From: Candidatus Campbellbacteria bacterium
Lineage (GTDB): Bacteria; Patescibacteriota; Minisyncoccia; Phycocordibacterales; EsbW-18
Direction of reading: 5' to 3'
Assembly: GCA_045863475.1 (NCBI GenBank)
Contig: BTUR01000001.1
Span: forward strand, 59,846 to 123,845
DNA length: 64,000 nt
Shown here: positions 4,226 through 47,228 of the stretch, piece after piece
Layout: each line of letters opens with the position of its first letter
Position numbering within the stretch: the first letter of the stretch is position 1
Position numbers and translations under genes: made by a program
Notes under the pieces: model-generated
Told to the model about the DNA's origin: nothing
Seen by the model: only the letters and a program-made list of their open reading frames with translations
Database searches by the model: none

Positions 4226-4317
4226 CTTGTCCACATAAGGCTTTTTTCCGAAAAAAAGCCTTATTTTTCGTGGTATTATTTGGGGTGGCAACTGAAGCCG
4301 CCGATTTTTCATTGTTC

Positions 4318-7300
4318 ATGACAGAGCGAACACCTACAAAAGCGCTTCTCACCTCGATTTTCCTCCTCGGTTCGTTACTCGGACCTCTCTTTTCTGAGGC
4401 CGAGACGACTGTCGAAGACCCGTTTGCGACAGGGTCCACAACCCCCACACTCTTTGACCGATACGCAACATTTTCCGAAGGTGCGCAGGGCGTTATTTTT
4501 GGCGCATTTGAAAAAACACTCGCGGACGTTCTTGTCGGTTTTCGGTTATACGACGAATTTTCCGCCGGCGCGGAGCGGACGGTTCTCGATGGGTTTACCG
4601 CTTTTGCTGATGGTGCGCTGTCAGCAACATACACATACGAAAACGCAGCAAATATTTTGCATACAGCAACACTCGCGTCAGTGTCCGACGCCGTCGATTC
4701 TGTCGGTGGCAGTGTTGCGTTCGGCAGACGCAGCTATGTAACAGCTGTTGATACCGTGTTTGCATTTGCCGAACGCGCAGTCGTAGACACAACCGACGCG
4801 ACTGTTGAAAATGCGCAACGCATGACGCGTGTCGCGCGCTCACTTGTTTCGTTGGACACATTTGTTGTGCGAAGCACAACGGAAGAAGAAAAAGAAAAAC
4901 TAACTCCAAAACAAGAACCGACCGTCGTGATAAAAAATAATACACTCACTGCGTCAGGGGCTCTCGCGTGGAACACGCTTGGTGGCGTACCTGATGTTGC
5001 AATCGATGCTGCAAAAAATTCTCTCGCAGCAAGCGCAGAAGCAACAACGGGACTGTTTGAGCGCACGCGCCTCGCACTCCGACGCTGGCTTGGTATCGGG
5101 GATGACACAATGGTTGCTGTTCCGGGCACGAATACAACGACAGCCACAACGACGGTCATTGAGCGCATCGTTGAGCGCCCGACGACGGTCACGCAGGTGT
5201 TGCGAAGCAGTGGTGTTTCGTATGCAGACCTCATCAATGCAATTGCAGGATTACGAAACGAACTCCAGCCGCAGATAGACCTTGCGATGGAGCGTCCGCG
5301 CACGGTGTCGCATTCAGGTGATGACGATGATGATGGTGGTGATGGCGGAAGCAGCGGAGATGTAACTGAGGACGACTTGTCCGACAACTCCATTGAGGAC
5401 CTTTCCGATGTCGCTGCGATGACTGAAACATCCGGCGACCTGCTCTACTGGAACGGGGCAACATGGACGAACATCGCAACGTCGTCTTTGGGAATTTCCG
5501 GTGGCTCATCACAATGGACGACCTCCGGTTCAGATATCTACTACACGACAGGCAACGTCGGTGTCGGCACAACGTCGCCTGACGAGCGCCTGACGGTGGG
5601 CGGCAATATTCACGCAACGGGCTCCGTTGATATTGACTCAGGTTCCGAATATCAGATCGGCGGTACGGGGATTCTTACGCGCACGAGCTCGGGCGCCGTA
5701 CTGCTTGGTGACTACAACACGTCGGTCACGCGTGGTACAAACGCACTTGAACTCCAGTCAGCGCCCGGTGACACAACAAACTTCGCGCAAGGAAACAGCT
5801 CAATTGTCATCGGTATGTGGAACCGTGCGTCATCAACAAACGCAATTGCAATCGGTAACAGTAATGAAGCATATTCCGCCGATGACATTCTTGTCGGATA
5901 CGGGAACATGACGCGAGAGACCGCTGCAGCTGGAACACAATCGGACTCGACCATCTTTGGTCGCGCCAACGAAATCTGGAACGTAAATAACTCACTTGCC
6001 CTGGGTGACGATAACTCTCTGACCGGCGGATTTGCGGGGCTTGAGCGTCAGGTAGTTGTGGGCGCATCAAACTCTGTGGAAGGGGCGGGGTACACAAGCG
6101 TATTCGGCTACGACAACACACTCAATGCAGCATCGTCATACTTGTACGCGGTTGCGCTCGGTTCAACCAACATCCTCGGTACTACTCCGGCGTACTCGGT
6201 TGCTGTTGGTTCGAACAACGCACTCGACGGTGCGCGCACGGTTGCCGTCGGTTCCAATGTGTACGCCGGCGGTCCCGAGGCAATCGCCATCGGTGTCGAG
6301 TCGTCAGGTGGAAACATGTTTGCGCTCGGTTATCGCGCGATTTCAATCGGTGTGAATACGCAGGCGAACGCCGACGGCGCGATTGCAATCGGCAACGGCA
6401 TCGTCAACGCGGTTGCCTCGTCCACGCAGATCGGTCCGTCAGACACAGCGAAGCTCACTATCCTTGGTGCCACGGGTTCGGAAGGATTCGTCGGTATTGG
6501 CACGACGACGCCCGCGACAAATCTCGTTGTTGACGGCGACGTTTCAATCACTGGCGGGCTCTACGATTCCGGCACCTCGCTTGGTTCAAACGGCATGGTG
6601 CTTCAGTCAACAGGAACGGGTATCGACTGGGTGTCGACGTCATCTCTTAACATCACCCAAGACCTCTCCGCATACCTGACACTTGCCGACTGGTATGCGA
6701 CAACAACGGACGGACTTGCTGAAGGACTCACAAATCTCTATAACCAAACACACACAGGCGAGGTGACTGGGGCAACAGGTCTCACAATTGCTGATGATGT
6801 TGTCGATGAAGCGAATCTAAAAATAAACGCGGCCGTTGACGGGTATGTTATCTCTGCGTCGTCAACCGCATCTGGCGGGCTTGCGTGGGTCGCGACATCC
6901 AGTTTGGGATTTGGTAGTGGTTCCGGGGTTGTTGGCTCTGGCACAACAGGACAGGTTGCATACTACGCCGCGGACGGCACAGCGGTAACGGGAACGTCGT
7001 CTGTGTTCATTGCACCGAGCGGCAATGTGGGCATCGGTTCAACGACACCGTTGAGTGTGCTAACCGTATCAGGTCCTGCGGCAACAATCTCGATAGACAA
7101 CTCAAGTATCGGAGGTCGGATATACCAGTTGCGCAATGGGGTGTCACCCGTTGGTCGTTTCGAAATATTTGATGTCAGTGCAAATGAGACACGGCTTGCT
7201 ATAGACTCTGATGGAAAGACGGCTATTGGCACATCAACACCGATAGAAGACGCAAGGCTATTTATCTACGGTGGCGCGAATGTCGATATTCGCACAGCGG

Positions 7301-10300
7301 CAAACACTGAGAACGCAACGATTGAAGTACAATCCGATGACTTTGAGTCCAGTTTCCAGTCAGCATATCTCCAATACGTTGGGTCAGGTATCGCGGGGAA
7401 CGTGTTTGGCTCTGTCCCGAATGCAGATCTCGCCCGGCTCGTTTTTCAGGAGTCGGCGAACGCAGCGATATACACAACAAATGACGTCCCGATTATTTTT
7501 GGCATAAATAGTGCTGAAGTCGCACGCTTCAGTGGAACGAGCTTTGGTATCGGTACGACATCACCATACGCTACGCTGTCCGTTGCGGGTGATATTGCAC
7601 TGACTGGCGGTTTATACGATAGTACCGCATCGCTCGGTGCAGATGGCTTCGTGTTGCAGACAACAGCCACAGGTGTTGAGTGGGTTTCAACATCATCGCT
7701 TAACATCACCCAAGACCTTTCCGGCTACTTCACACTCGCTGACTGGTACGCAACAACAACGGACGGGCTTGCTGAAGGACTCACAAATCTCTATAACCAA
7801 ACACACACAGGCGAGGTGACTGGGGCAACAGGTCTCACAATTGCTGATGATGTTGTCGATGAAGCGAATCTAAAAATAAACGCGGCCGTTGACGGGTATG
7901 TTATCTCTGCGTCGTCAACCGCATCTGGCGGGCTTGCGTGGGTCGCGACATCAACACTTGGATTGGGTAGTGAGTTGTTTGTTGACGATGGAAGCACACT
8001 TCGCACAGCCGGTGGAGAGGCGGTGCAGGCCGACTACTTTATTGCGACATCAACATCTGCCACTTCAACTTTCCCGATTATTGCGGGAAGTTCTGCCGCA
8101 TCAGGAAATCTCATTTTGCAGTCAACGACCAACTCGACGAAGGGTCGCATCTATCTCGAGGGGACGAGTAACGGAACGGGCCTAGGCATCCGCATCAATA
8201 ATGATTCAGGAACTGCACGGCTCGAACTGTACAACGGGACATCGGGAAACGCAGCACACATTCTTGCCGGCACCATTCTTGGCTCAGCGTTTCGAGGTTC
8301 GGCATCGTGTTCATCCGCTCCGTGCTTCAGTATCAACCCGACGCAGGCATCATTTAACTCGGCGTACACCCTTGATTGGACGAGTGGCGCGTACAATGCA
8401 ACGCGTGACATCGGCCTCGCTCGTGTCAGTGCCGGTATTCTTGGTGTTACAGGTGGACTGACAGGTGGTGGCGCACTTTCCGCAAACTATTTTACTGCCA
8501 CGTCGACGTCAGCAACATCAACGTTTTCAGGTGTTCTGAGTGTTGCGGGTGCGCTCGCAGATGGCTCTGGTAGTCCTGGCGTTTCTGGCTACGTTCTTCA
8601 ATCCACCGGAACGGGAGTAGATTGGGTTTCGACGACAACGCTCGGATTGGACGGAGGTACGAGTTTGTTTGTTGATGACGGCACCACTCTTCGCACGGCC
8701 GATGGGGAAGCAGTGCAGGCGAGCCACATCATCTCCACATCAACCGCGACCTCCACTTTTGGCGGAGACATTTCGATAACCGGCGACATTGTTCCGACTG
8801 CGGACAACACGTACTCGCTTGGTGCTTCAACAACACAGTGGAAAGATGTTTTCATCGGTCCCGGGTCACTGTACATCAACGGACAGAAGGTGATTGAGGA
8901 AGACGGGTCGAACAATATTGTCGTATCGTCTGATATCAACCAGTCACTCGTCCTTCAGACGTCGGGGAGTGGTGATGTGGAACTTAATCCGACGGGGGCC
9001 GGTCTCATTTATCTCAAGGGAAATATTAACGTTACGGGCGGTAAGGTGGTTTCCACATCCGATAATTCATTACTTGAGTTTGAAGACGGCGTCCTTGCAG
9101 GAAATCTTGCAATTGACGGCAACGCAATTACCGCAACGAACACCGATGGAAGCATTTCACTGACTCCCAACGGTGTTGGTAATCTTCTGCTCACAAGTGG
9201 TAACTTTGGCATCGGCACGTCATCTCCATACGCAGACCTTTCCGTTACGGGTGACATAGCACTCACGGGTGGTTTGTATGACAATACGGCAACACGCGGT
9301 GTTTCGGGGTATGTCCTCCAATCCACTGGCACAGGAGTTTCATGGGTCTCGACGAGCTCCTTGAATATATCCGGCGGCTCTTCGCAATGGACAACGACGG
9401 GCTCGGACATTTACTACGCGACGGGACGAGTTGGTGTGGGCACGACGGCACCTGCGTTCACACTCTCGGTTGCCGGTGACACACTACTGGACTCTAACAA
9501 TATTCGTTTTGCATCCAGCTCCGCATCATCACTTACCGTCAGTTACCTTGCCGCTGCGACATCAACGATTGTAAACAACTCCGCGTTTTCGTGGACCCTG
9601 GCGACGTCAACGACTGCAACGCCTATCTTCCGTATCGACACCACATCTGGAGGCATGGCGACAACATCTATTGCCGGCGGACTGCTCATCAACGGCGGTG
9701 CGATTTCATACGACTACGGTGCAAACGAAACATCCATTGAGAAACTCAATCTCGGCAACATGGCGTTTGATGACGACGCCGGCATCGTTTCGTGGATTAA
9801 TCTTCCCATCACGGCGTCTCCGTCCATCGGCACTCCGCAGAGCTATTCCGCGCAAATTGATGACAATATCCTCCTGACTATTTATGGTGAGGCAGACGGT
9901 TCAGGTGGTGCACAGAATTTGCGTGTTGGTGTTGGTACATCAACGCCGTATGCGCGCTTTGCCATTATGGGTGCCGCTGGTTCTACTGATATATTCCAAA
10001 TTGCTTCATCAACCGGAGCGAGTGTTCTTACGGTGACAGCTGCGGGGAAGGTGGGAATTGGCACGACGACCCCGTACACGACGTTGGCTATCATTGGACC
10101 CGATGAAGCACCAACGACAGCGACGACAACCAACGGAGGACTCGGTATTCGTGGTACGGGAACAACAGTCGAGCTGACTATGGGTACGAACGTTGAAGGT
10201 TCAGAAGCATATGCATGGTTACAGGGTAAAAATTATGTGACACCAGGTATATACTATCCGATTATCCTTAACCAAAACGGCGGCAACGTCGGTGTAGGTA

Positions 10301-11100
10301 CCTCAACGCCAACTCAGACGTTCTCAGTGGAGGGGACGGTTGCGTTCAACGGACTCGGAACGGTTGGCGAGATTCAACCAGATGCACTCTGTATAGGCAG
10401 TGATGGAGAGGTAATGGTGAACACAGGAGCGACGGACTGCACCCTATCATCCATTCGTTTCAAACACGACGACCAAGACCTGGCCATCGGCTTAGACGAG
10501 CTCCTACAATTGCGCCCAGTGTCATTCGTGTACAACGAAATGGATGAACGAAGAGTTGGTTTTATTGCCGAGGATGTTGATGCTGTTTCAGGTCTCGACC
10601 CTCTCATCTTCCGTGAAGAAGACGGAACCCCGCGCGGTGTTCGTTATGGTGATATGGTTTCACTTGTCGTCAAATCAATACAGGAACTCAACTACAAGGT
10701 GGACCAGGCACTCGCGGCAAGCGGTGCAGCAATCCAAGGTGGTATCGCGCGATTTACGGAACTCATTGCGGACAAGGTTACGACAAAAGAACTTTGTCTG
10801 GATGATGTGTGTGTGACGCGTGACGAACTGCAAGAACTTCTTGATAATGCAAACATTGATAGCACGCCTCCAAGCGGCGGGGGAGACACAACACCGCCTT
10901 CAGGCACAACAACGCCGCCGACAGACGGGACGGGCACGACAACCGACCCCGCCCCCGAACCTGACCCGACCCCTGATCCGACGCCGGAGCCAGAACCAAC
11001 CCCGGAACCAACGCCGGAACCAACACCTGAACCTGAGCCAGAACCTGAACCCGAGCCCGAGCCAGAACCTACTCCTGAACCCGAACCAATAACCCCGTAA
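4318..11100 (+). CDS. Giant (~2260 aa) secreted fibre-like surface protein: signal peptide, YadA-head/Hep_Hag-like Gly-rich beta-repeats, repeated ~55-aa modules, peptidase-S74 intramolecular chaperone domain, Pro/Glu/Thr repeat tail
   Basis: Signal peptide MTERTPTKALLTSIFLLGSLLGPLFSEA; repeats like AIAIGNSNEAYS / SVAVGSNNALDG / AIAIGVESSGG; S74 motif SSIRFKHDD...LRPVSFVYNE...GFIAEDV...SLVVKSIQEL; C-terminal PEPTPEPEPEP. Confidence 0.8.
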   Translation: MTERTPTKALLTSIFLLGSLLGPLFSEAETTVEDPFATGSTTPTLFDRYATFSEGAQGVIFGAFEKTLADVLVGFRLYDEFSAGAERTVLDGFTAFADGALSATYTYENAANILHTATLASVSDAVDSVGGSVAFGRRSYVTAVDTVFAFAERAVVDTTDATVENAQRMTRVARSLVSLDTFVVRSTTEEEKEKLTPKQEPTVVIKNNTLTASGALAWNTLGGVPDVAIDAAKNSLAASAEATTGLFERTRLALRRWLGIGDDTMVAVPGTNTTTATTTVIERIVERPTTVTQVLRSSGVSYADLINAIAGLRNELQPQIDLAMERPRTVSHSGDDDDDGGDGGSSGDVTEDDLSDNSIEDLSDVAAMTETSGDLLYWNGATWTNIATSSLGISGGSSQWTTSGSDIYYTTGNVGVGTTSPDERLTVGGNIHATGSVDIDSGSEYQIGGTGILTRTSSGAVLLGDYNTSVTRGTNALELQSAPGDTTNFAQGNSSIVIGMWNRASSTNAIAIGNSNEAYSADDILVGYGNMTRETAAAGTQSDSTIFGRANEIWNVNNSLALGDDNSLTGGFAGLERQVVVGASNSVEGAGYTSVFGYDNTLNAASSYLYAVALGSTNILGTTPAYSVAVGSNNALDGARTVAVGSNVYAGGPEAIAIGVESSGGNMFALGYRAISIGVNTQANADGAIAIGNGIVNAVASSTQIGPSDTAKLTILGATGSEGFVGIGTTTPATNLVVDGDVSITGGLYDSGTSLGSNGMVLQSTGTGIDWVSTSSLNITQDLSAYLTLADWYATTTDGLAEGLTNLYNQTHTGEVTGATGLTIADDVVDEANLKINAAVDGYVISASSTASGGLAWVATSSLGFGSGSGVVGSGTTGQVAYYAADGTAVTGTSSVFIAPSGNVGIGSTTPLSVLTVSGPAATISIDNSSIGGRIYQLRNGVSPVGRFEIFDVSANETRLAIDSDGKTAIGTSTPIEDARLFIYGGANVDIRTAANTENATIEVQSDDFESSFQSAYLQYVGSGIAGNVFGSVPNADLARLVFQESANAAIYTTNDVPIIFGINSAEVARFSGTSFGIGTTSPYATLSVAGDIALTGGLYDSTASLGADGFVLQTTATGVEWVSTSSLNITQDLSGYFTLADWYATTTDGLAEGLTNLYNQTHTGEVTGATGLTIADDVVDEANLKINAAVDGYVISASSTASGGLAWVATSTLGLGSELFVDDGSTLRTAGGEAVQADYFIATSTSATSTFPIIAGSSAASGNLILQSTTNSTKGRIYLEGTSNGTGLGIRINNDSGTARLELYNGTSGNAAHILAGTILGSAFRGSASCSSAPCFSINPTQASFNSAYTLDWTSGAYNATRDIGLARVSAGILGVTGGLTGGGALSANYFTATSTSATSTFSGVLSVAGALADGSGSPGVSGYVLQSTGTGVDWVSTTTLGLDGGTSLFVDDGTTLRTADGEAVQASHIISTSTATSTFGGDISITGDIVPTADNTYSLGASTTQWKDVFIGPGSLYINGQKVIEEDGSNNIVVSSDINQSLVLQTSGSGDVELNPTGAGLIYLKGNINVTGGKVVSTSDNSLLEFEDGVLAGNLAIDGNAITATNTDGSISLTPNGVGNLLLTSGNFGIGTSSPYADLSVTGDIALTGGLYDNTATRGVSGYVLQSTGTGVSWVSTSSLNISGGSSQWTTTGSDIYYATGRVGVGTTAPAFTLSVAGDTLLDSNNIRFASSSASSLTVSYLAAATSTIVNNSAFSWTLATSTTATPIFRIDTTSGGMATTSIAGGLLINGGAISYDYGANETSIEKLNLGNMAFDDDAGIVSWINLPITASPSIGTPQSYSAQIDDNILLTIYGEADGSGGAQNLRVGVGTSTPYARFAIMGAAGSTDIFQIASSTGASVLTVTAAGKVGIGTTTPYTTLAIIGPDEAPTTATTTNGGLGIRGTGTTVELTMGTNVEGSEAYAWLQGKNYVTPGIYYPIILNQNGGNVGVGTSTPTQTFSVEGTVAFNGLGTVGEIQPDALCIGSDGEVMVNTGATDCTLSSIRFKHDDQDLAIGLDELLQLRPVSFVYNEMDERRVGFIAEDVDAVSGLDPLIFREEDGTPRGVRYGDMVSLVVKSIQELNYKVDQALAASGAAIQGGIARFTELIADKVTTKELCLDDVCVTRDELQELLDNANIDSTPPSGGGDTTPPSGTTTPPTDGTGTTTDPAPEPDPTPDPTPEPEPTPEPTPEPTPEPEPEPEPEPEPEPTPEPEPITP
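6718..6899 (+). repeat. Intragenic direct repeat copy A (~180 bp identical to 7768-7949)
   Basis: Identical DNA encoding AEGLTNLYNQTHTGEVTGATGLTIADDVVDEANLKINAAVDGYVISASSTASGGLAWVAT in both copies; antisense ORFs 6738..6944 and 7791..8006 share identical translations. Confidence 0.85.
7768..7949 (+). repeat. Intragenic direct repeat copy B
   Basis: See copy A; flanking ~80 bp diverged at synonymous and nonsynonymous sites. Confidence 0.85.
10860..11097 (+). repeat. Low-complexity (ccn-gaa/gag-cca) tandem repeat encoding TPPSG...PEPTPEPEPEPEP tail
   Basis: Visible short-period repeat cctgaacc/cgagcc; antisense translation is GSGVGSG. Confidence 0.8.
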
Positions 11101-11106
11101 TCTCCC

Positions 11107-14100
11107 ATGCGTTTTTCTCGTAGAACAATATATGTAGTAGTCGGGGTGATTGCGTTGATTGTTGCTTTGTACGCGCTGGTCACAACAGTGCGCGGTGATA
11201 CGTTTTTCGGAATTTCTCTGCGCTCGGGTTCTTTGAGCGACGGACTTATTGCGCATTGGACGTTTGACGGTAAGTACATGACACCGAATGTGCGGGATGC
11301 AGCCGGAAGTTACCACGGTGTATTAACAAACCAAACGGCAACGACAACACGTATCGGACGCATCGGGCAGGCGCTCGAATTTGACGGTGACAATGACTAC
11401 GTCAACCTCGGCACCATCCCGCTCAGCGACCCACTGCAGCTCTCTGACGATGTACTCACTATTTCTGCGTGGTTCTATCAAAAATCAGGGGGCGACAGCT
11501 TTCAACGCATTATCGACAAATCAAGCAACACGGGTGCGACAAACGGCTGGGCGTTTTTTGCCGACCCCAGTGATCCGAACTCCATATGGTTTCAATCTGC
11601 CGGTTCTGAACTTCGTTCCGCGGATAACGTCTACAATCAGAACGAATGGACACACGCGGCAGTCGTGTTTCGCGCCAATGATGTCAAAAAGATATACGTA
11701 AATGGCCAAGAGGTTTCGTTACAAACATCAAACAACCTAAACATCCCCAATTCAGCTGTCGGTGCCCGCATTGGTACGTGGTATAACGCCACGACGCGTG
11801 AATGGAACGGCTATCTCGATGATATCCGCGTGTACAACAGACTGCTTTCGGCAAACGAAATCAAGCGTTTGTACGGACTCGGCAACACGACGCGGATTTC
11901 AAAAACAATTTCTGTCGGCAGTATCGGTGCAACGGCCGACTCCGGGCTCGTCGGCCACTGGACGTTTGACGGTAAACACATGACACCGAATGTGCGGGAT
12001 ACCAGCGGGCAAGCGAATCATGGCGCACTCGCGAACTTTTCTGCTACGACCACTGCGATTGGCCGCATTGGTCAGGCACTTGAATTTGATGGATTGGACG
12101 ATGTTGTTGCTATTACACACAACAGCGTGCTCAATCCGTCGGGCAGTTATACCGTCGCGGCATGGGTATACCCACAAACCCTTCCTACAGTGAGCAACGG
12201 ACAATGGATTGGGATAGTTGCAAAAGGGAATACAGGGGAAACATCCGCGAGCAACCACCCATATGTTATCGCGTACCACCCTGTCGGTGGGGGAAGCCCG
12301 GTCGGCTTCGGTGTTGGACTCGAAAACAGCTCTGGATCAAACTGCAATGCATTTTCAAGTGATGCGGAACCAGCGGGAGCGTGGTATCACGTTGTCAGCC
12401 GTTTCAATGACAGTTCCAATGTGCTTGAAGTTTTCGTCAACGGTGTTTCTCAGGGAAGTGATGCATGTAGTTTAAGCCCCAACACTGGGAACTCGCGCCC
12501 TGTTTGGATTGGAGATGACGAACACACATCAGGACTTCGATTTGACGGTGTCATAGATGACGTCCGTATCTATAATCGCGCTCTTGTTGATGACGAAATA
12601 CAACGGCTCTACGATCAGGGTTCTGGCACCAGAATTACCTACACACCACCTGCGGAAGAAAACACTGCGCCGACGGTAAGTGATTCGGGGAGGAGTCCAT
12701 TTCACGGTGCGGATCTTGGCGGCTCTTCGTCCATAAAGCTCTTCATGAATACATGGACGGATCCGGAGGGGGATTCTATTGAATATTATTTTGAATTTTT
12801 CCAGAACGCGGCGTTTTGCAGTGGTGGAACAGGGATACTAAACAGTGGGTGGATTAGTGACCCAACAGCGACCGGAGGATTCACCGTAGCACTATCCGCT
12901 GGCAGCACATATTCATGGCATGTAAAGGCAAGGGACGAACACGGACTTGAGAGTGATTACAACGCCTGTTATGTGTTTACGAACAGTATCGGCGGCAGCT
13001 GTCCGTATGTGTTCGGTTGGGATGGAGAACAGTATCAATTCGAAGCAGATATCTACGGCTCCGGCGGCTTGGGGTACAAGAAATGGGGAGCATCCGACTT
13101 CGTGCAACCCTCTCCAAACAGGACGTATGTCCTGAAGTACGTAGAACCCCGAAATGGAGCGTTTGAGTGGCGCATCGTGGGTGACCTCAGTGAAATCAAC
13201 TACTTTGACCTCTTCCGTATGTATTCGTATTTTGTGCCGGAGGATCGTGACATCATCGTTGAGTCGCCGACGCTGGGCTCGGGTATGAGCGCGACGAGTA
13301 CGCTCCATACCATATCAACGGCACCGCTGTCGGCTCTGTCGGCGACGCGCCTTGATACGAACGAAGACGTTACGAGCGCTCTGTCAGCGCGCGACGAAGA
13401 CAAAGTCATCGTCAATAAGAACAAAAAAGAGACATATGAACCCGTACAAATAGAAGTCGATTTCGGCGACATCTCACGCTATTCGACGAAGAAGCTCGTT
13501 GTCGGCGGCTCAACAACGTACCCAACCACCGAAGAGGGTATCGCGCGCAAACAACTCTACGGTCGGGAGTGGGGTTTGTACGTGCAGGACGCGGCAGGGC
13601 AGTGGCAGAAAGTGCCGTACGAAAAATACAGCCCGACAAAACCGCTCTCATTCGAAAGTGTACTCGCCGTTGATATCTCAGACATCTTTATTTCGGAGAA
13701 CACAAAACTGCGCCTCGAGTACTTATATAAGGTATACGTGGATTACGTTGCATTGGACGTTACCGAGGATTTGCCGCTCGCGGTCGCCGAGGAACATCCA
13801 ATTACGTATGCTGACTTGCATGACTTTGGCGGATGGCACGATTTCGATAAGGATGGCAATGTGCCTGACTACTACAACGTTTCGCCACTTGAGGAGGATT
13901 ACGAGGATTTTCCGGGATACTACACCCGTTTCGGCGATGTTACTCCGCTTCTTGAAAAGCGTGACGACAAATTTGTTATTCTTGCGAAGAGAGACGAGAT
14001 AACCGTGAAGAACGCGCTACCCAAAATTGAACCCCCGACAGGATACAAGCGCGTGTACATGCTCGATGTGACCGGCTACTACAAGGCGCTCACCAAGACG

Positions 14101-14310
14101 ATGACGCCTATGACCGTTGAACCCATGCCGTTCTCGGGTATGAGTGCGTTCCCGTACCCTGATACGGAGCACTACCCGGACACGCCGGAGTATCAGGAGT
14201 ATCGGGCCAAATACAATACGCGGTACCTCTCTCCTGACACTCCAAGGAGCGGCTCCTCTATTACTGATGCGGCAAAGCGGCTCCTGGATGGCGTCCTTGG
14301 CGGGGAATAG
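11107..14310 (+). CDS. Membrane-anchored protein with two LamG-like (concanavalin A-like lectin) domains and a long Tyr/Pro-rich C-terminal region
   Basis: N-terminal TM helix; duplicated motif L(I/V)(A/G)HWTFDGK(Y/H)MTPNVRD..G..HG.L.N.(T/S)ATTT.IGRIGQALEFDG.(N/D)D(Y/V)V plus I(R/D)VYNR(A/L)L...EI.RLY; 7-nt gap after giant gene suggests one operon. Confidence 0.75.
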   Translation: MRFSRRTIYVVVGVIALIVALYALVTTVRGDTFFGISLRSGSLSDGLIAHWTFDGKYMTPNVRDAAGSYHGVLTNQTATTTRIGRIGQALEFDGDNDYVNLGTIPLSDPLQLSDDVLTISAWFYQKSGGDSFQRIIDKSSNTGATNGWAFFADPSDPNSIWFQSAGSELRSADNVYNQNEWTHAAVVFRANDVKKIYVNGQEVSLQTSNNLNIPNSAVGARIGTWYNATTREWNGYLDDIRVYNRLLSANEIKRLYGLGNTTRISKTISVGSIGATADSGLVGHWTFDGKHMTPNVRDTSGQANHGALANFSATTTAIGRIGQALEFDGLDDVVAITHNSVLNPSGSYTVAAWVYPQTLPTVSNGQWIGIVAKGNTGETSASNHPYVIAYHPVGGGSPVGFGVGLENSSGSNCNAFSSDAEPAGAWYHVVSRFNDSSNVLEVFVNGVSQGSDACSLSPNTGNSRPVWIGDDEHTSGLRFDGVIDDVRIYNRALVDDEIQRLYDQGSGTRITYTPPAEENTAPTVSDSGRSPFHGADLGGSSSIKLFMNTWTDPEGDSIEYYFEFFQNAAFCSGGTGILNSGWISDPTATGGFTVALSAGSTYSWHVKARDEHGLESDYNACYVFTNSIGGSCPYVFGWDGEQYQFEADIYGSGGLGYKKWGASDFVQPSPNRTYVLKYVEPRNGAFEWRIVGDLSEINYFDLFRMYSYFVPEDRDIIVESPTLGSGMSATSTLHTISTAPLSALSATRLDTNEDVTSALSARDEDKVIVNKNKKETYEPVQIEVDFGDISRYSTKKLVVGGSTTYPTTEEGIARKQLYGREWGLYVQDAAGQWQKVPYEKYSPTKPLSFESVLAVDISDIFISENTKLRLEYLYKVYVDYVALDVTEDLPLAVAEEHPITYADLHDFGGWHDFDKDGNVPDYYNVSPLEEDYEDFPGYYTRFGDVTPLLEKRDDKFVILAKRDEITVKNALPKIEPPTGYKRVYMLDVTGYYKALTKTMTPMTVEPMPFSGMSAFPYPDTEHYPDTPEYQEYRAKYNTRYLSPDTPRSGSSITDAAKRLLDGVLGGE

Positions 14311-19977: not shown

Positions 19978-20893
19978 GGCCGTACTGAATATGATTACTT
20001 CAATTAACTGCATACCGCGGAGCATATAGATGCGAGCCCTTGTGGTGCGCCTCGAAACCCTCCGCTCAAAAAGCGGTTTTTTTGTTCTCATAGACAGTCG
20101 ATGACCTTTGACAACTGCATAAGCAATAAAGAATCAAATGCTTATTTCGCGCAAGCGAAGTAAGCGCAGGTATCTCGTGCGGCTCATCTAGCGCCGCGCG
20201 GGAATCAAACAACGTGTACCGCGCAGCGGTGTGTTGGTGCACGGAATCGCAGACGCATGTAGGTGCGTATGCGATAAAGACGGTTTTTAGATTTCCTAAC
20301 GGGAGATTTAAAGGGCGTATGGTGGATGCCTTGGTTCTATGTGGCGATGAAGGACGTGGTGTAACTGCGATAAGCTTCGGGGAGGTGTTAAGCAACCTTT
20401 GATCCGGAGATTTCCGAATGGGGAAACCCTGTCGAGTAACCCTCGATAACCGACGCAGCGATGCGCGGAGCATACCCTGGGAAGTGAAACATCTCAGTAC
20501 CAGGAGGAAAAGAAAACAAATGTCATTCCCTTAGTAGCGGCGAGCGAAACGGGAGCAGCCCAAACCACACTGTACTTGTATAGTGTGGCGTTGTAGGGCG
20601 GTAACGCCTGTTTTTAACAAGGAGAAAGTTACAAAATACATCTTTAGTCGAATGCGCTGGAAAGCGCAATCCCAGAAGGTAACAGTCCTGTAGACGAAAA
20701 AGATGTATCTTTCTAGTTACCGTTCCTGAGTACCTCAAGACACGAATAGCTTGGGGGAATCCGCCGGAACTAACCGGCAAGGCTACATACACATAGAGAC
20801 CGATAGTGAACTAGTACCGCGAGGGAAAGGTGAAAAGAACCCCGGAGAGGGGAGTGAAATAGATCTGAAACCATATGCCTACAAGGAGTCAGA

Positions 20894-21228
20894 GCCGAGC
20901 TCTACTTTTTGTTTTTAATTTTCTTTGAACATGTTGAAGGTACGCTCGTGCATATGCACGTTGTGTATCTGATACAAAACACGGTGAGCCACGAACTGTA
21001 CGTTGGTGTAACACGCGACCTTAAAAAGAGGTTGGTGACACATAACAGCGGTGCGGTTACGGCAACGCGACGCAGCGGCGAGTGGGTCTTGATTTACGCG
21101 GAGGCGTATCGAGATGAGCACGACGCGCGCGAGCGAGAGCATCACCTCAAACAGCGCGGCGCGGCAAAACGCGGCGTGTATGAAAGAGTTCGAAGAAGTT
21201 TCCTTGAAAACAAAAAGTAGAGCTTCGG
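20894..21228 (+). other. Intervening sequence (IVS)-like insertion in the 23S helix-25 region, closed by a ~17-bp stem (gccgagctctactttttg ... caaaaagtagagcttcgg)
   Basis: rRNA similarity is interrupted after CAAGGAGTCAGAGC and resumes at GCGTGCCTATTGAAGAATGAGCCAACGAGTT; the insertion termini are an almost perfect inverted repeat. Confidence 0.65.
20954..21220 (+). CDS. GIY-YIG nuclease-superfamily protein (UPF0213-like, ~88 aa) encoded inside the 23S insertion
   Basis: VYLIQN...ELYVGVTRDLKKRLVTHNSG...LIYAEAYRDEHDAREREHHLK GIY-YIG motifs; ORF exactly fills the loop, stop codon TAG lies in the 3' stem arm. Confidence 0.7.
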   Translation: MHVVYLIQNTVSHELYVGVTRDLKKRLVTHNSGAVTATRRSGEWVLIYAEAYRDEHDAREREHHLKQRGAAKRGVYERVRRSFLENKK

Positions 21229-22640
21229 TCATGGCGTGCCTATTGAAGAATGAGCCAACGAGTTTAAGTATGCGGCGAAGCTAAATCCTTTGTCGGATGA
21301 AGCTGCAGGGAAACCGAGTGTTAATAGCGCGTACTTTGAAAGCAAGGAGGTCGGACGTGTAGGTGAGCAATCACACACGCGTTCGGCATTCTCGCTTTCA
21401 AAAGGTCGTATACTTAAGACCCGAAGCTAGGTGAGCTACCCATGAGCAGGGTGAACTTTGTCGAAAGATGAAGGGAGGCCCGAACCGGTTGATGGTGCAA
21501 AATCTTCGGATGACTTGTGGGTTGGAGTGAAAAGCTTATCGAACCTAGTAATAGCTGGTTCTCTCCGAAACAGCTTTTGGGCTGGCGTACAGCGTACCTC
21601 TTGGGGGTAGAGCACTGGATGGTCCGGATAGGGAGAAATCTCGCTGGACCAATCAAACTCCGAATACCAAGAGTAAGTACTGTGCAGTTAGACCGTGGGG
21701 GCTAAGCTCCACTGGTCAAAAGGGAAACAGCCCTTGATCTCAAGTTAAGGTCCCTAAATCGATGCTAAGTGCAAGTCGAGGAGGTGAAATTTCTCAGACA
21801 CTGAGGAAGTTGGCTTAGAAGCAGCCATCTTTTAAAGAAAGCGTAACAGCTCACTCACTCAGAGATTTCGCGCCACAGACTATCGGGGCTAAGTATCGTA
21901 CCGAAACTGAGGATGACACGTGCGTTCGCGCATGTGTCGTGGTAGGAGAGCATTTCCATCTGCGATGAAGCCGAAGGCGTGAGCCACGGTGGAGCGATGG
22001 GAAGAGAGAATGTTGGTACAAGTAACCGCAATGCGGGTGAAATACCCGCACGCCGAAAAACCGAGGTTTCCTTCGCGATGGTAATCAGCGAAGGGTTAGT
22101 CGGGCCTAAGCGAATGGCGAAAGCCGGACGTGATGGACACACGGTTAATATTCCGTGACTCGGCTGTAATTCGATGGAGAGACGGAGTGAAGTATATATC
22201 GCACATTATTGGATTTGTGTCGGGCATGCGAGGAGGTCTGTTTGGCAAATCCGGCAGACACTACTCCAGAGGCATGTTCGGGAACCCAATCTACGGAACG
22301 GGGAACGATATAAAGCGCGCTTCCAAGAAAATCTTCTAAGGTTAATTACAGACGACCCGTACCGCAAACCGACTCCGGTGGTTAGCTCGAGTAGAGTAAG
22401 GCGAACGAGTGAGAGGTCCTCAAGGAACTCGGCAAAAAAGCGACCGTAAGTTAGCAATAAGGTCTGCCTGCGCAGCAGTGCGTGGGCCGCAGCTAAAGTC
22501 TTCCTGGCGACTGTTTATCAAAAACACAGCTCCCTGCGAACTCGTAAGAGGATGTATAGGGGGTGACACCTGACCAATGCCAGAAGGTCAAGTATGGAGG
22601 GTCTTCTCCGCAAGGAGAAGGCTGAGCTATATAAGCCCTG

Positions 22641-22702
<62 letters not shown>

Positions 22703-22765
22703 ACGCCGATGAGAACAAATGCTATGGTACGTAAATAGTCTGTGCGCATGGCGAAGTGCCACGTG

Positions 22766-23425
22766 CTATGCAGTTTCTTCAGGTGCGGCTGTTTCTCCTT
22801 CTCCCTCCGCAGTTTCATCCTTACCTTTCTTTTCCACTTCGATTGCATCCATGTCAATCGGTGCAACCGGCTCTTCGATTTCTTCTTGCGGCTGAGAAAT
22901 TGCGGCAACCACTTCGTCTCCTTCGTTGAGAATCGTAACACCTGCAGGCACGGGTATGTCTTTAATGACAACTTGACTGTCAAACGTTTCAAGCGATGAC
23001 ACATCAACAGTGAGCTCGTGTGGCAAGTCTTTTGGCATCGCCTCAACTTCCACCTCGTGCATCACCTTCACCAGTGTACCACCCAAGTTCTTAACTGCGG
23101 GCGCCTCACCTGTGAACAACAGCGGGACATCGATGCGAAGCTTCTTTCCTTTCTCGATAACGTAAAAATCAACGTGCTCAAATACATCCGTGACCGGATG
23201 TTTTGTAACTTCATGAACGAGCGCGTCTTTCGGCTCACCAACACCTTCCAGTGTGATGATGGATGATTCACCGGCCGAGCGGAACACTTTTTCAAATGTC
23301 TTGCGGTCAACTGCAATCGGCGTGGATTCCTCTTTCGGACCGTAAAAAACCGCCGGAATCTTGCCGCCTTTGCGCAAGCTCTCCGCGTTTCCTGCCTCTC
23401 GTTTTTCTACTGTAAGCGTCAACAT
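22766..23425 (-). CDS. rplY: 50S ribosomal protein L25 / general stress protein Ctc
   Basis: L25/Ctc family (LTVEKREAG..SLRKGGKIPAVFYG, two beta-barrel domains, acidic tail); start set to MLTLTVEKR. Confidence 0.85.
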   Translation of the reverse strand: MLTLTVEKREAGNAESLRKGGKIPAVFYGPKEESTPIAVDRKTFEKVFRSAGESSIITLEGVGEPKDALVHEVTKHPVTDVFEHVDFYVIEKGKKLRIDVPLLFTGEAPAVKNLGGTLVKVMHEVEVEAMPKDLPHELTVDVSSLETFDSQVVIKDIPVPAGVTILNEGDEVVAAISQPQEEIEEPVAPIDMDAIEVEKKGKDETAEGEGETAAPEETA

Positions 23426-23465
23426 AGGCGTCCTATACTCGCATAAAACCTCGCCGAAGGCAAGA

Positions 23466-24338
23466 TTAGAACCCCGCAAAAAGCTTCATGCGCTTCTCGA
23501 CGACCTCCTGGACTGCAACAAGCGCTTGTTTTGTGTATTTGTAGGGAGCAAGCTCGTCCGGGTTCTCCTGCAAACTGAGCTGGAGTGCTTTTCGGTACGC
23601 CTGTCTGAGTTCCGTGGAAACATGCACGAGCGCAATGCCGTTTTTGATGACCGCCGCGTAATCCTCGTCAGATGTTCCGGTGCCGCCGTGCAAAACGAGC
23701 GGGACAGCGACCGCACCGGCAATCTCTTTAACCCGTTCCGGGTTAAGCCGCGGATCCATACCGCTCTTCAGTGTTCCGTGAATGGTGCCGACCGCAGGAG
23801 CAAGCAGGTCAACGCCGGTTTCCTCAACAAATCGCTTTGCATCCGCCGCTGTCGTCATCATCTCGGAAGTGACCGCTGCTCCCTCGGGAAGCGCATCAAG
23901 CACTTGTGAACCGACACCAATAAATCCGAGTTCCCCTTCAATCAACGTCGCGCCTCCTTTCTCTTTTGCGTATGCGGCACACTCACGCGCCTTGGTAATA
24001 TTCTCCTCAAGTGAAAGTTGTGCGCCGTCAAAAATGACCGAGTCGAAACCAGCGTCAATTGCCTCCTTCACGCGCTCAACTGAATAGGTGTGATCGGCGT
24101 TAAGATAGACGGAGAGACCTGATTCTTCACGCGCTGCGCGCACCATTACGGCAAGTTCACGAACGCCGAACGCATCACGCTCGCCCTCTGACGCTCCGAT
24201 GACGACCGGAAGACCGGTTGCCTTTGCCGCGGCAACGACGGCGCGAAACATCTCTATGTTGCCGACGTTAAAATGGCCGACTGCCTTTCCCTGCGCGCGA
24301 TATTCTTGGAGCGTCTCTATAAGCGTCTGCATGCACAT
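23466..24338 (-). CDS. fba: Class II fructose-1,6-bisphosphate aldolase
   Basis: FbaA/tagatose-bisphosphate aldolase family motifs (VGHFNV, LHGGTG.SDED). Confidence 0.85.
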   Translation of the reverse strand: MCMQTLIETLQEYRAQGKAVGHFNVGNIEMFRAVVAAAKATGLPVVIGASEGERDAFGVRELAVMVRAAREESGLSVYLNADHTYSVERVKEAIDAGFDSVIFDGAQLSLEENITKARECAAYAKEKGGATLIEGELGFIGVGSQVLDALPEGAAVTSEMMTTAADAKRFVEETGVDLLAPAVGTIHGTLKSGMDPRLNPERVKEIAGAVAVPLVLHGGTGTSDEDYAAVIKNGIALVHVSTELRQAYRKALQLSLQENPDELAPYKYTKQALVAVQEVVEKRMKLFAGF

Positions 24339-43765: not shown

Positions 43766-44485
43766 TTAATGCTTCTGTGCCCATACCGCGATTGCGGGAA
43801 ACAGAATTTCGCGTTCAGATTTGGGCATATGCAACAAGTACGGAGAGACATCAAATTCCCACTGCAAAACTCTTTCAGCAAGTGCTTTTTTTTCTTCTGT
43901 GTCGGCTATAAATGTCTTGAGAAACCGCTTGTGGTTAGGCATTTGATGATACGTCATGCGCGTCACCTGTGCTCCTTCTTGTTTAAGAATTTGCCTGACT
44001 TTTTCAGGATCGAGATAACACACGTATTTTTTCTCAGACAAAAGAAACGGGAGATTATTCCCCAAAAAAACCTGTAGGCGCTCCTTCAATGACGATGGCA
44101 GAAGCGAGTGTCCGAGGTCATAGCGATGAATAATGTATCCGCCGCTCTTTGTCAGCTGTACACTGTTTTTTAAGAATCGTTCAATCTGCTTTACATGCTC
44201 GAGAACGCTGAGGGACACGCAAAGATCAAACTGTGCTTCGTTACGTAGTGGTTCATATGCCAGTTGATTATAGATACGAACATTTGGAAAACGCGAGAGA
44301 AGTGCCCGTGCAGTATCGGCATCTTCTTTGCGCGGCTCAATACCGATGTACGAAAGTTTTGGAAACCGTTCAAGGAGCGGCAAAAAACTGCGCGACTGCC
44401 CACTACCCAGGTCGACGATACGCGTCGTCTCCCCAACTTCGAGTTCTCGTGCGATACGTTCGATAAAAAACTCTTTCGGCTGCAT
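43766..44485 (-). CDS. Class I SAM-dependent methyltransferase
   Basis: IVDLGSGQS glycine-rich motif I, IGIEP motif II. Confidence 0.7.
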   Translation of the reverse strand: MQPKEFFIERIARELEVGETTRIVDLGSGQSRSFLPLLERFPKLSYIGIEPRKEDADTARALLSRFPNVRIYNQLAYEPLRNEAQFDLCVSLSVLEHVKQIERFLKNSVQLTKSGGYIIHRYDLGHSLLPSSLKERLQVFLGNNLPFLLSEKKYVCYLDPEKVRQILKQEGAQVTRMTYHQMPNHKRFLKTFIADTEEKKALAERVLQWEFDVSPYLLHMPKSEREILFPAIAVWAQKH

Positions 44486-44545
44486 GATATTCGTACTATA
44501 TCATGGCAAGCAAAAAGTGCTCTCGTACGGTACACTAATGGTCGT

Positions 44546-45793
44546 ATGGAACAGATAAAACACCGTCTTATCGGCGCATTGCGTTGGAGCGAAAAATACA
44601 CGAAGACCGACATGGTGTATCTCGTTGGTAATAGTTTCTGGCTCACGGTAGGACAGGGCATCTCCTCTCTAGCATCCCTCGCGCTAATAATTGCGTTTGC
44701 TAACCTTCTCCCAAAAGAAACTTACGGGACTTACAAGTTTGTTCTCTCGGTGGCAAGTGTTCTTTCCGTGCTGACCTTGCCAAGAATGAACACCGCAATC
44801 ACACAGGCCGTTGCACGCGGGTATGAAGGTTCTCTTTTTGTTGGCACAAAAAAACGCGTTATTTGGGGTACGTTCGGTGCTATCGTCTCCTTTTTTGTTT
44901 CCCTTTATTATTTTCTGCAAGGCAACACTGAAATTGCAATTGCACTACTTCTTGCCGCAGCATTTCTTCCCATATTTGATACATTCGGCACCTGGAATGC
45001 ATATCTCCAAGGAAAACAGGATTTTAAATCCGGGGTGATTTATACCACAGTTGTGCACATTGCTTCTGTTACCATACTGTTTCTAACTATTCTTGCCACT
45101 GACAGTCTTCTTGCGATTGTTTTTATCTACTTTCTTTCATATACGCTACTACGCGCTTTCTTTTTCTATCTCACAGTCAAAAAATATACGCCAAATACCC
45201 TGATTGATCCGAGTACGTATTCCTACGGGAAACACCTGACGGCGATGACAGTTTTGAGCACTATCGTTGGACAATTGGACAAAATACTTCTCTTTCATTT
45301 TTTGGGAGCAGCCCAAGTTGCAACATACTCAATCGCCCTGGTTGTACCAGAACAAGTTCAGGGTATGCTTAGAAATGTCGGGGTGGTTGCATTTCCAAAG
45401 TTTGCTTCACAAAGTTTTGAGGATATAAAAAGAAATCTCTCCTTCCGGCTTGCACAATATGGTCTCTTCATAACTATTCTGACCATCCTTTATGTTTTTT
45501 TGGCACCGTTTTTATTTTCTCTTCTTTTTCCCGGATACAGTGACGGCATCCTGCTCTCGCAAATAGTTTCGCTGTCCCTTATTACCGCCTTGGTTGGGCC
45601 TGCCGTAGCAGCCCTAGAAGCTCAACAGAAAAAACAGCAACTCTACATGCTTCGAACCCTCTTTCCTGTTATAGGCATCGTTCTTTTTCTTGCCCTTGTA
45701 CCCACTTTTGGGATTTTAGGAGCAACACTTGCGTTTACTACCCTAAACTTCTCAAAACTCATCCTCTCACTCTTCTTTCTCTATAGGACATAA
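44546..45793 (+). CDS. Polysaccharide biosynthesis flippase (Wzx/MOP-family)
   Basis: ~12 TM helices, Polysacc_synt-like pattern; start trimmed to MEQIKHRL. Confidence 0.7.
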   Translation: MEQIKHRLIGALRWSEKYTKTDMVYLVGNSFWLTVGQGISSLASLALIIAFANLLPKETYGTYKFVLSVASVLSVLTLPRMNTAITQAVARGYEGSLFVGTKKRVIWGTFGAIVSFFVSLYYFLQGNTEIAIALLLAAAFLPIFDTFGTWNAYLQGKQDFKSGVIYTTVVHIASVTILFLTILATDSLLAIVFIYFLSYTLLRAFFFYLTVKKYTPNTLIDPSTYSYGKHLTAMTVLSTIVGQLDKILLFHFLGAAQVATYSIALVVPEQVQGMLRNVGVVAFPKFASQSFEDIKRNLSFRLAQYGLFITILTILYVFLAPFLFSLLFPGYSDGILLSQIVSLSLITALVGPAVAALEAQQKKQQLYMLRTLFPVIGIVLFLALVPTFGILGATLAFTTLNFSKLILSLFFLYRT

Positions 45794-45932
45794 CTTCCAC
45801 CTAAAATAAGTTGTCTGTACAAGTAAAGCTTTAAAAAACGAAACCAGGGTAGAAACCGCCTGTTCTAAAAGAGGAAAGTGGGTTACATTAGTATGGTTCC
45901 CATTAAAACGACGCCAATAGCAACTACACAAC

Positions 45933-46601
45933 ATGCAGAACAACACTCATTTCAGCAAAAAAAATAAAGACTATGAAGCTTACTGGAAGGACAGAATCGG
46001 AAGAAACAGAACTTACATAACACCGATTCATCGAAAAATTTTGGAGTTGGTCTCGAAAATAGCGAAGCCGGGTAGTGCCGTCCTTGATTTGGGGGTTGGT
46101 CCCGGCCACGTGTTTAGAGAATTACAAAAAGACTACAAAGTATACGGGGCGGAAATCTCTACCACAGTATTTGATCTTTATGACTTTCCCACCGAAAACA
46201 TCAAACATGTTGACTTGGAAAAAGAGATGCCCGCGTTTGATGGAAACCCAAACTTCTCCGTGATTATCGCAAGCCACATCATCCACCATTTTGATGATCC
46301 GCTGGCTTTCCTGCGTCGGGTTAAAGAAAAAATGGATAGCAACACTCGCCTCTTGGTGGCCACACCCAATACTGTATTTATAAACTACAGAATAAAATAC
46401 CTCCTTCTTGCTCAGTTTCCTGATCTTAGTCGTGCCCACGTCAACTACCTGACTCCACGTGAATATAGAAAATTATTCGAAGAGGCAGGTCTAGAAATTG
46501 AAACATTTGCAGGAATTAAGCATTACCCCCTCCTAGTTTTAAGCACAATCTTTCCCTCCCTGTTCTCACAAACACTATTCTTTGTTGTTAAAAAGGTCTA
46601 A
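45933..46601 (+). CDS. Class I SAM-dependent methyltransferase (AT-rich gene)
   Basis: VLDLGVGPGHV motif I, acidic motif II YGAEIS. Confidence 0.7.
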   Translation: MQNNTHFSKKNKDYEAYWKDRIGRNRTYITPIHRKILELVSKIAKPGSAVLDLGVGPGHVFRELQKDYKVYGAEISTTVFDLYDFPTENIKHVDLEKEMPAFDGNPNFSVIIASHIIHHFDDPLAFLRRVKEKMDSNTRLLVATPNTVFINYRIKYLLLAQFPDLSRAHVNYLTPREYRKLFEEAGLEIETFAGIKHYPLLVLSTIFPSLFSQTLFFVVKKV

Positions 46602-47201
46602 AACTACCTGTAGGGTTTTTTCTTCTCGCACAATCGATGCGGGAGTTTGAAAGTTTAAGTAATCCCAGTCAATGAAATAAATCTCTCCTTTCTCATTTAG
46701 GAGGATATTTTTAGCTTTAATATCCCCGTGTACGTATCCAAGATCGTGTAGCCTTGAAGTAAAATCTTGAACTTGTTTTTTAATTTTCATTCTTTCAGCC
46801 AGAGTTGGATTTTTTGCCAAAAAATCTTTCAGGCTTTCAGACTCTGTAATAACCTCAGTTAGTATTTTATTTTCAAAAAGAACGACTTTTGGAATATTGT
46901 TTTTTAAAACAACGTCCTCGGTTAGTTTCTTTAGGATTAGAAAACATTCCTTGTCCGGCAACCAATCAAGCCCCATTTTCTTGTGGTAAATCCTGGTAAC
47001 GGGGTTTTTAATTTTTATAACGAACCACTCAGGTTTCTCTTTTTGTTTTACCCTGTAAATAAAATGTGTTGGCTTTTCGTTTCCACAAAAAAAAGAGGTG
47101 ACGTCTAATCGGTTTTTAAACTTCAACTTATAAAAAAATAACACTGGAAAATAGAACAGAAACAGGATAATCTTCGATGTGTAAAGTAAAACACTGTTCA
47201 T
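46575..47201 (-). CDS. Kdo/WaaP-like lipopolysaccharide kinase-family (protein-kinase-like fold) protein, AT-rich gene
   Basis: LHDLGYVHGDIKAKNILL catalytic loop, YFIDWD metal-binding motif, N-terminal membrane anchor. Confidence 0.6.
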   Translation of the reverse strand: MNSVLLYTSKIILFLFYFPVLFFYKLKFKNRLDVTSFFCGNEKPTHFIYRVKQKEKPEWFVIKIKNPVTRIYHKKMGLDWLPDKECFLILKKLTEDVVLKNNIPKVVLFENKILTEVITESESLKDFLAKNPTLAERMKIKKQVQDFTSRLHDLGYVHGDIKAKNILLNEKGEIYFIDWDYLNFQTPASIVREEKTLQVVLDLFNNKE

Positions 47202-47228
47202 TTTCGTTTGATTTCAATAATCGACCGT

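Follow-up and report, generated by a model that had tools for sequence, protein, structure and literature searches.

Why should an intramolecular-chaperone domain of the Peptidase_S74 kind, which the initial annotation knew as the extreme end of phage tail spikes, be followed here by a long proline-rich tail? The question is raised by the 3' end (positions 10440-11100) of an open reading frame (ORF) in a 64,000-nucleotide (nt) stretch of contig BTUR01000001.1 from a Candidatus Campbellbacteria bacterium; the whole stretch is called the window below. Position 10440 lies 7 nt upstream of the codon for Ser2060 and 11098-11100 is the stop codon of the ORF, which runs from 4270 to 11100 on the plus strand and encodes 2276 amino acids (aa). 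We refer to its product as the fibre protein. The best explanation, which we consider probable, is that 10440-11100 is the C-terminal maturation module of a secreted, presumably trimeric fibre of a type belonging to the candidate phyla radiation (CPR, or Patescibacteria), and, more speculatively, that the extension after the domain may aid a chaperone that is disposed of once the fibre has folded.

Residues 2060-2155 are a bona fide S74 intramolecular-chaperone (ICA) and autoprotease domain with its catalytic dyad intact. The Pfam model PF13884 (Peptidase_S74), which represents only the first 58 positions of the domain, matches aa 2060-2106 (10447-10587) with its positions 1-52. The score is 31.9 bits (E = 1.7e-7) against a cut-off of 22 when the whole protein is searched, and 35.7 bits (E = 1.1e-8) when the C-terminal 266 aa are searched alone. 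The initial annotation had named the Ser-Lys dyad as the thing to look for in a profile alignment and had taken SSIRFK as the counterpart of the S-D-x-R-x-K motif. Both expectations hold: SSIRFK occupies aa 2060-2065, with the canonical S(+0)/K(+5) spacing of the ICA dyad defined in PMC8326128, where S587/K592 of MyRF correspond to S911/K916 of endoNF. In an alignment of the window protein with 29 relatives (33-54% identity) the invariant columns are C2041, C2057, S2060, K2065, G2097, A2100 and E2101 (the last three in GFIAED), G2119, C2176 and C2181. A profile built from these 30 sequences matches the solved chains of the S16 long tail fibre (6f45, E 1.7e-10) and of another tail fibre (8jov, 4.1e-10), and a T5-like L-shaped fibre (8hqz) is matched too, as is MyRF (7dc3). 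In their Ser/Lys and GxIAxE motifs the profile and the solved chains share one register, the SSIRFK-type motif facing SDERLK in 8jov and SdRRIK in 6f45. The predicted cleavage site lies between Leu2059 and Ser2060.

Structure prediction agrees. AlphaFold2 (AF2) run from the single sequence reached a predicted local distance difference test score (pLDDT) of only 39, and an alignment-based model was used in its place; this has a mean pLDDT of 82.6 and a core at 91-97. A Foldseek search of the model against the PDB agrees with the S74 identity, and one against a viral structure library gave 269 matches at E <= 0.001, named S74/ICA or tail fibre.

Where does the domain end? A "coiled segment" had been read as a separate element following the domain, with some 180 aa in all after it. 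In the model, aa 2126-2155 form a helix of 30 residues, and this segment is the helix with which the S74 domain itself ends. The alignments of the PHROG tail-fibre profiles cover aa about 2054-2146, where the profiles come to their own C-termini (for example 892-991 of 1000 and 402-500 of 507), and the solved phage chains run through the helix and stop 2-8 residues past the part aligned with it. In MyRF the corresponding helix forms a triple coiled coil that drives trimerization, which is required for cleavage (PMC8326128). The fibre protein thus combines the profile match, the Ser-Lys dyad and a fold ending in a long C-terminal helix. It runs 170 aa past the Pfam envelope; with the coiled segment counted as part of the domain, about 121 aa (2156-2276), and not about 180, are left as true extension. 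That the domain does not stand at the extreme C-terminus was correctly seen.

The extension has three parts (Table 1): a variable linker, a conserved mini-module with a Cys hairpin, and a tail. In the mini-module the model has strands at 2175-2177 and 2180-2182 and a helix at 2184-2194, all at pLDDT 87-90; a Pfam search matched it to no family. The tail begins with a T/G/S/P-rich part and continues as a strict Pro-X alternation, (Pro-X)24, over 48 residues (aa 2227-2274, 10948-11091), with X being mostly E (14 positions) and otherwise T (6), D (2), A (1) or I (1). Overall the tail is 36.5% Pro and has no basic residues. It had been described as a perfect (PEPT/PEPE)n tract; a Pro-rich repeat tail is certainly present, but the repeat is a dipeptide one and not a perfect tetrapeptide. 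Run on the tract DNA, Tandem Repeats Finder found a period of 6 with 71% matches and one of 12 with 89% (3.4 copies). The codons are degenerate, so the tract is not a recent slippage product, and since no long perfect DNA repeat is present either, a role as a slippage or phase-variation tract was rejected. Also rejected, as a gene, was a minus-strand ORF at 10692-11279 encoding (GS/GV)n, which is a mirror image of the Pro-Glu codons.

Pro-X tracts such as those of TonB and procyclin are generally regarded as extended and rod-like. The tail resembles the EP/GPEET procyclins of Trypanosoma, the (EP)n/(KP)n region of TonB and the N-terminal linker of SslE/AcfD in being a strict Glu-rich Pro-X sequence. 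The likeness is one of composition and not of homology, scoring 27 bits where the Pfam cut-off is 100, and the context is entirely different. Database matches to the tail were of this compositional kind only. Those to Trypan_PARP and NF037973, both far below their cut-offs, were rejected as homology, as were those to SslE/AcfD, P14 protein, PR20 and others found by a phmmer search of the fragment against the PDB.

Is the extension peculiar to this protein, or is it a property of its family? A word-indexed homologue search with aa 2040-2200 found no match. An exhaustive HMMER search of cluster representatives with the same query found 9232 at E <= 1e-3, of which 777 reach E <= 1e-10. Identity is 57% for the best of them, and the counts that follow are for the top 150. 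The motif S-x-x-[RKQ]-x-K is kept in 140/150 representatives, and the distance from the Ser to the C-terminus has a median of 244 aa (217 in the window protein). An LC...C...LL hairpin occurs in 97/151 family members and an alternative G..YC...G.C loop in 21. The tails that follow these loops have a median length of 91.5 aa and are rich in T, E, P, S and D, with 1.5% K+R. Every one of the 115 scored tails (those of at least 20 aa) is net acidic, 36 of them are at least 20% Pro, and none has a transmembrane-like stretch; as no LPXTG-like ending was seen either, a C-terminal membrane or sortase anchor was rejected. The tail sequences cannot be aligned even among the closest relatives, and their length and composition vary widely. 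What is conserved in the tail is composition, not sequence. The premise that an S74 domain always forms the extreme C-terminus therefore fails twice, since the domain is internal in MyRF and an extension is the norm in the fibre protein's own family.

A Cys pair precedes the Ser in 135/150 representatives, and 863 of the 910 Cys in the family are in short-range pairs, which points to disulfides and hence to folding outside the cytoplasm. The window protein itself has no more than six Cys, which pair up at short range as 1347/1352, 2041/2057 and 2176/2181.

The taxonomic distribution was examined in a scan of one genome per GTDB species, using a profile from a 5-sequence alignment. It gave 51 related genome loci, mostly labelled as Patescibacteria lineages. 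More than 160 aa follow the Ser in 38/39 Patescibacteria-labelled loci. Relatives from Planctomycetota, Aminicenantes and Syntrophaceae end 93-106 aa past it, and four relatives on viral contigs end 94-124 aa past it, without the extension; the 217 aa of the window protein thus depart from the terminal position that the domain has in phage spikes. Within the fetched loci, acidic low-complexity C-termini are found in 34/69 S74 ORFs and in 0/160 of the remaining ORFs with a length of 300 aa or more (p = 1.3e-21). A local hidden Markov model search of the fetched loci placed 29/29 hairpin occurrences in S74 proteins, a sample biased by the loci having been fetched through their S74 match. When a hairpin-only profile was run against a set of 5.8 billion proteins it gave one match, which at 69 aa is too short to tell whether the hairpin ever stands without an S74 domain. 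In the source databases the family goes under the names "tail fiber domain-containing protein" or "hypothetical protein".

Further observations were made on the family. In many relatives a second Cys module, …GI(T/E)(L/M)xDxxTGxxYC…G…G.C, replaces the LC...C hairpin after the chaperone helix (L009, L011, L013, L015, L023, L024, L027, L029, L031, L032, L038, L039 and L041); often followed by the Ig-like domain PF16403, it looks like an alternative cassette at the hairpin's position. The C-terminal module profile matches 70 ORFs in all across the window plus 57 fetched loci, so that some genomes have several S74 fibre genes side by side. The fibre protein ends in ...ITP (Thr-Pro, 11092-11097) and its counterpart in the closest genomic relative, described below, in ...VTP, and the C-termini of the family are non-random. 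Thr stands at position -2 in 45/151 against 20.6 +/- 4.1 expected, and T-P or T-E endings number 33/151, where 6.6 +/- 2.5 were expected and none of 2000 resamplings gave more than 15 (expectations come from random positions in the last 60 residues of the 150 representatives and the window protein). One locus on a viral-class contig (L053; IMGVR_UViG_3300027567_000004, match from 5001) has a CPR-like S74 domain, …VCINAATKELVDAGGNTCTLSSEYLKHN…, with a hydrophobic C-terminal helix, WYFIGVLIIWNIWLTI, directly after it and basic residues behind the helix; 136 aa lie between the Ser and the end. Its topology is MyRF-like, that is, membrane-tethered.

What kind of protein carries this module? The whole 2276-aa product is rich in T, G, A and S and acidic, with an isoelectric point (pI) of about 4. 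The GTG listed as the start probably lies too far upstream, and the ATG at codon 17 (4318), which gives MTERTPTKALLTSIFLLGSLLGPLFSEAETT... at the N-terminus, is the likely true start. The hydrophobic segment at aa 23-44 suits a signal peptide or signal anchor, judged by its sequence, and behind it a signal-peptidase cut after SEA (before the E that follows) is possible. For the N-terminal 421 aa no Pfam match was found. The body, some 2000 aa upstream of the S74 domain, is rich in T, G, S and A and repetitive, and has a weak YadA_head match below cut-off. Within the gene there is a 300-nt direct repeat, 6529-6828 and 7582-7881 (plus strand; 84% identity, spacing 1053 nt), by which a block of the fibre body has been duplicated; the protein motif ...WVSTSSLNITQDLS.Y.TLADWYATTTDGLAEGLTNLYNQTHTGEVTG... 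is present twice.

The gene is chromosomal and cellular, belonging to a CPR/Patescibacteria-type bacterium. It is flanked on one side by an M50 peptidase gene and on the other by a gene for a 1067-aa LamG protein, followed by rpsL-rpsG-fusA; the window also carries genes for L25, ParB and 23S rRNA. The surroundings were tested for virion genes and no phage structural genes flank the fibre gene, and in a PHROG search the full-length protein matches none of the families. Synteny is kept in another species: in the best genomic relative (L002), a metagenome-assembled genome labelled Candidatus Saccharibacteria, a giant S74 protein, a LamG protein and S7 stand in the same order. The chaperone module of this relative is 59% identical to that of the window protein, the fibre body only about 30%, and its LamG partner has four LamG stretches. 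The phage tail-spike frame of the initial annotation is contradicted by these neighbours and this synteny, and by the signal-like N-terminus. The LamG protein may be a functional partner of the fibre.

How does the arrangement compare with known systems? The S74 ends of phage fibres and spikes that we considered, namely the K1F endosialidase (3GW6), the GA-1 neck appendage (3GUD), the T5 L-shaped tail fibre (4UW8) and the S16 long tail fibre (6F45), finish a few residues past the helix, whereas the fibre protein continues for about 121 residues. It differs from phage fibres also in having Cys pairs both ahead of the scissile bond and within the extension, in its cellular gene and in its signal-like N-terminus. 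MyRF (7DC3) is like it in that the ICA domain is internal (PMC8326128). In MyRF, however, a transmembrane helix and a luminal domain follow the ICA domain and cleavage releases a transcription factor; in the fibre protein there is no transmembrane segment after the domain, a hairpin and an acidic tail follow, and the product would be an extracellular fibre. The S74 subgroup of the mosaic adhesive trimeric (MAT) fibres of Bdellovibrio bacteriovorus are chromosomally encoded fibres that carry a signal peptide, have a self-cleaving S74 end and function in predator-prey contact (PMC10769870). MATs are proteins of about 1000 aa in which the signal peptide is followed by a common beta-rich domain of about 130 aa, and 13/21 of them terminate in an S74 domain; for one, Bd3182 (922 aa), self-cleavage was shown at S782 and was abolished by the S782A change (PMC10769870). 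No hairpin or acidic tail is described for the MATs, whereas the fibre protein has both. By analogy, MAT fibres would be the closest functional counterpart for an episymbiotic or parasitic CPR cell.

Taken as a maturation module of a secreted fibre, the region would work as follows. The protein would be exported by the Sec route through its signal-like segment, and the three short-range Cys pairs would be oxidized outside the cytoplasm. Three chaperone domains would trimerize through their helices and so nucleate folding of the fibre, and trimerization would activate Ser2060 for the cut after Leu2059. The mature fibre would then have about 2040 aa (about 207 kDa counted from M17), with the Cys2041-Cys2057 loop as its C-terminal tip. 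The initial annotation had suggested that cleavage would release a separate proline-rich peptide; a single cut before Ser2060 would instead shed a single fragment of 217 aa (23.3 kDa, pI about 4) comprising chaperone, hairpin and tail together. Most speculative are the roles of the last two: the hairpin might be an extra clamp for the chaperone trimer, and the acidic, extended, disordered tail might keep the disposable chaperone soluble or serve as its spacer, which folding outside the cell, and not in a phage-infected cytoplasm, would perhaps require.

Several points tell against this scheme. Cleavage, trimerization, disulfides and export are all steps that we infer, and the role of the extension is the weakest step of the mechanism. 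The AF2 model is a monomer, so that the hairpin clamp is no more than a proposal. The segment at aa 23-44 could, on its sequence, be a cleaved signal peptide or an anchor alike. Apart from the sub-cut-off YadA_head match, the body matches no triple-beta-helix or fibre family in Pfam. Long extensions also occur in five loci labelled Gammaproteobacteria or Pseudomonadales; unless these labels are wrong, the feature is not strictly confined to Patescibacteria. Finally, in some relatives the chaperone domain is followed by a folded Ig-like domain (PF16403), which would be odd for a part to be discarded and suggests that the C-terminal fragment might act in its own right.

This last point leads to an alternative that we regard as unlikely, namely that the protein is a two-product precursor, giving a fibre and a secreted trimeric C-terminal fragment with its own role, for example in binding the envelope or the host surface. 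It would parallel MyRF, both halves of which persist after cleavage. In its favour, hundreds of clusters share the post-chaperone region as a conserved feature specific to S74 proteins, the prediction of the hairpin is a confident one, relatives have their folded Ig-like domains in this region, and the enriched T-[P/E] endings hint at constraint at the very end of the protein. Yet the tails are variable and unalignable, which fits a physical role better than specific binding, and the fragment has no known partner or activity. In its general form the proposal, to which we would give only a small chance, is that CPR bacteria have turned a phage-derived, self-cleaving chaperone into a two-product device, which makes the host-contact fibre and, as its second product, a conserved secreted trimer. 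This trimer, with the hairpin and Pro-X rod or, in paralogues, Ig-like domains, would act at the envelope or host surface, or else tether the fibre until release as in MyRF.

Might the tail itself hold the protein in the envelope, the signal peptide having been removed, until the S74 cut frees the fibre? The wall-spanning Pro-rich regions of Gram-positive surface proteins and the N-terminal trimer of MyRF, which is freed from the endoplasmic reticulum membrane, would be models for this. The possible signal-peptidase site, the transmembrane helix straight after the chaperone domain of L053 and the extended form generally ascribed to strict Pro-X runs would all suit it. We nevertheless think it quite improbable, given that transmembrane-like stretches are missing from the whole set of scored family tails, that the C-termini showed no anchoring motif, whether of the sortase type or another, and that the tails, being strongly acidic with almost no K/R or aromatics, have no obvious wall-binding chemistry.

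Even less can be said for a domain that does not cleave at all and serves as a permanent trimerization module, the tail being part of the tip of the mature fibre. Such an arrangement would retain the folded domains that follow S74 in relatives. But a dyad that is invariant in 30 relatives, within a motif so widely kept in the larger family, is hard to explain without catalysis, and every tested S74 domain that has the dyad cleaves (PMC8326128; PMC10769870); we consider the idea very improbable. Least credible of all is a prophage tail spike with the extension as a phage-specific add-on, since the matches of PHROG tail-fibre families to the S74 domain, and a cell-wall hydrolase gene and a ParB-like gene 2-4 kb upstream, are outweighed by the lack of flanking phage structural genes among the M50 peptidase, LamG, rpsL, rpsG and fusA neighbours, by the absence of any PHROG match to the whole protein, by a gene order shared with a different species despite the divergence of the fibre bodies, by the signal-like N-terminus and by the four viral-contig relatives without extension.

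The S74 domain is well known and the family is already in databases under generic names; what is new is a lineage-typical appendage after the domain, of which the papers searched give no description. A search of the full-text literature found no paper linking CPR/Patescibacteria with S74 or intramolecular-chaperone domains, and among papers mentioning Peptidase_S74 or PF13884 none was on CPR. The feature in the window is typical of a family that is widespread and carries generic annotations; the result is mostly a clarifying one. It bears on a wider matter all the same. CPR/Patescibacteria are described as a very large and mostly uncultivated share of bacterial diversity, whose cultivated members attach to other microbes and in which host recognition is largely an open question. 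By analogy with the MATs, giant chromosomal S74-matured fibres are plausible host-contact structures. The shared post-chaperone module, a Cys hairpin or alternative Cys loop plus an acidic low-complexity tail, provides a sequence signature separating cellular from phage S74 fibres in metagenomes, which is useful because genes labelled "tail fiber domain-containing protein" could pass for prophage genes. The predicted cleavage site and fragment masses are targets to look for in metaproteomes. The locus also raises the question of how a chaperone domain that evolved for cytoplasmic assembly adapts to folding outside the cell.

Table 1. Features of the fibre gene and of its LamG neighbour (window coordinates; aa numbers refer to the 2276-aa fibre protein unless stated).
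Feature	Position	Strand	Evidence
Fibre gene, giant secreted fibre/adhesin-like protein, 2276 aa (predicted)	4270..11100	+	ORF list, composition, weak YadA_head repeat, L002 synteny
N-terminal hydrophobic segment, aa 23-44, TKALLTSIFLLGSLLGPLFSEA	4336..4401	+	Kyte-Doolittle window >1.5 nowhere else in the protein
Cys2041...Cys2057 loop, directly before the predicted scissile bond	10390..10440	+	Both Cys invariant in 30 relatives
S74/intramolecular-chaperone domain (structural), aa 2060-2155, including GFIAED (10558-10575) and C-terminal helix 2126-2155 (10645-10734)	10447..10734	+	
SSIRFK, aa 2060-2065, predicted nucleophile Ser2060 and general base Lys2065	10447..10464	+	PF13884 position 1 at aa 2060; S and K invariant
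Variable linker, aa 2156-2173	10735..10788	+	pLDDT about 50; gappy and length-variable in family alignment
Conserved mini-module ELCLDDVCVTRDELQELLDNAN, aa 2174-2195, Cys2176/Cys2181 beta-hairpin and short helix	10789..10854	+	Both Cys invariant
Acidic low-complexity tail, aa 2196-2276 (81 aa, 8.2 kDa)	10855..11097	+	Direct reading, composition
LamG gene, 1067 aa, N-terminal membrane segment, two LamG-type lectin (LamG/concanavalin-type) domains	11107..14310	+	Pfam Laminin_G_3, E 9.5e-49

A few observations concern the rest of the window. The LamG neighbour weakly matches the NCBIfam model of the TafC fimbrial protein, at 95.9 bits where the cut-off is 410. The 23S rRNA gene (20299-22833, plus strand; Rfam RF02541, 1436 bits) spans only 2535 nt against the 2925 positions of the model. 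It has no adjoining 16S or 5S gene, and there is no tRNA gene in the whole 64 kb. The L25/TL5 ORF (22766-23479, minus strand) overlaps the 3' end of the 23S gene if its listed TTG start is used. Finally, the GC content falls to 0.40-0.43 at 44001-48000, against about 0.52 elsewhere in the window, and this segment may be a horizontally acquired or surface-polysaccharide gene block.

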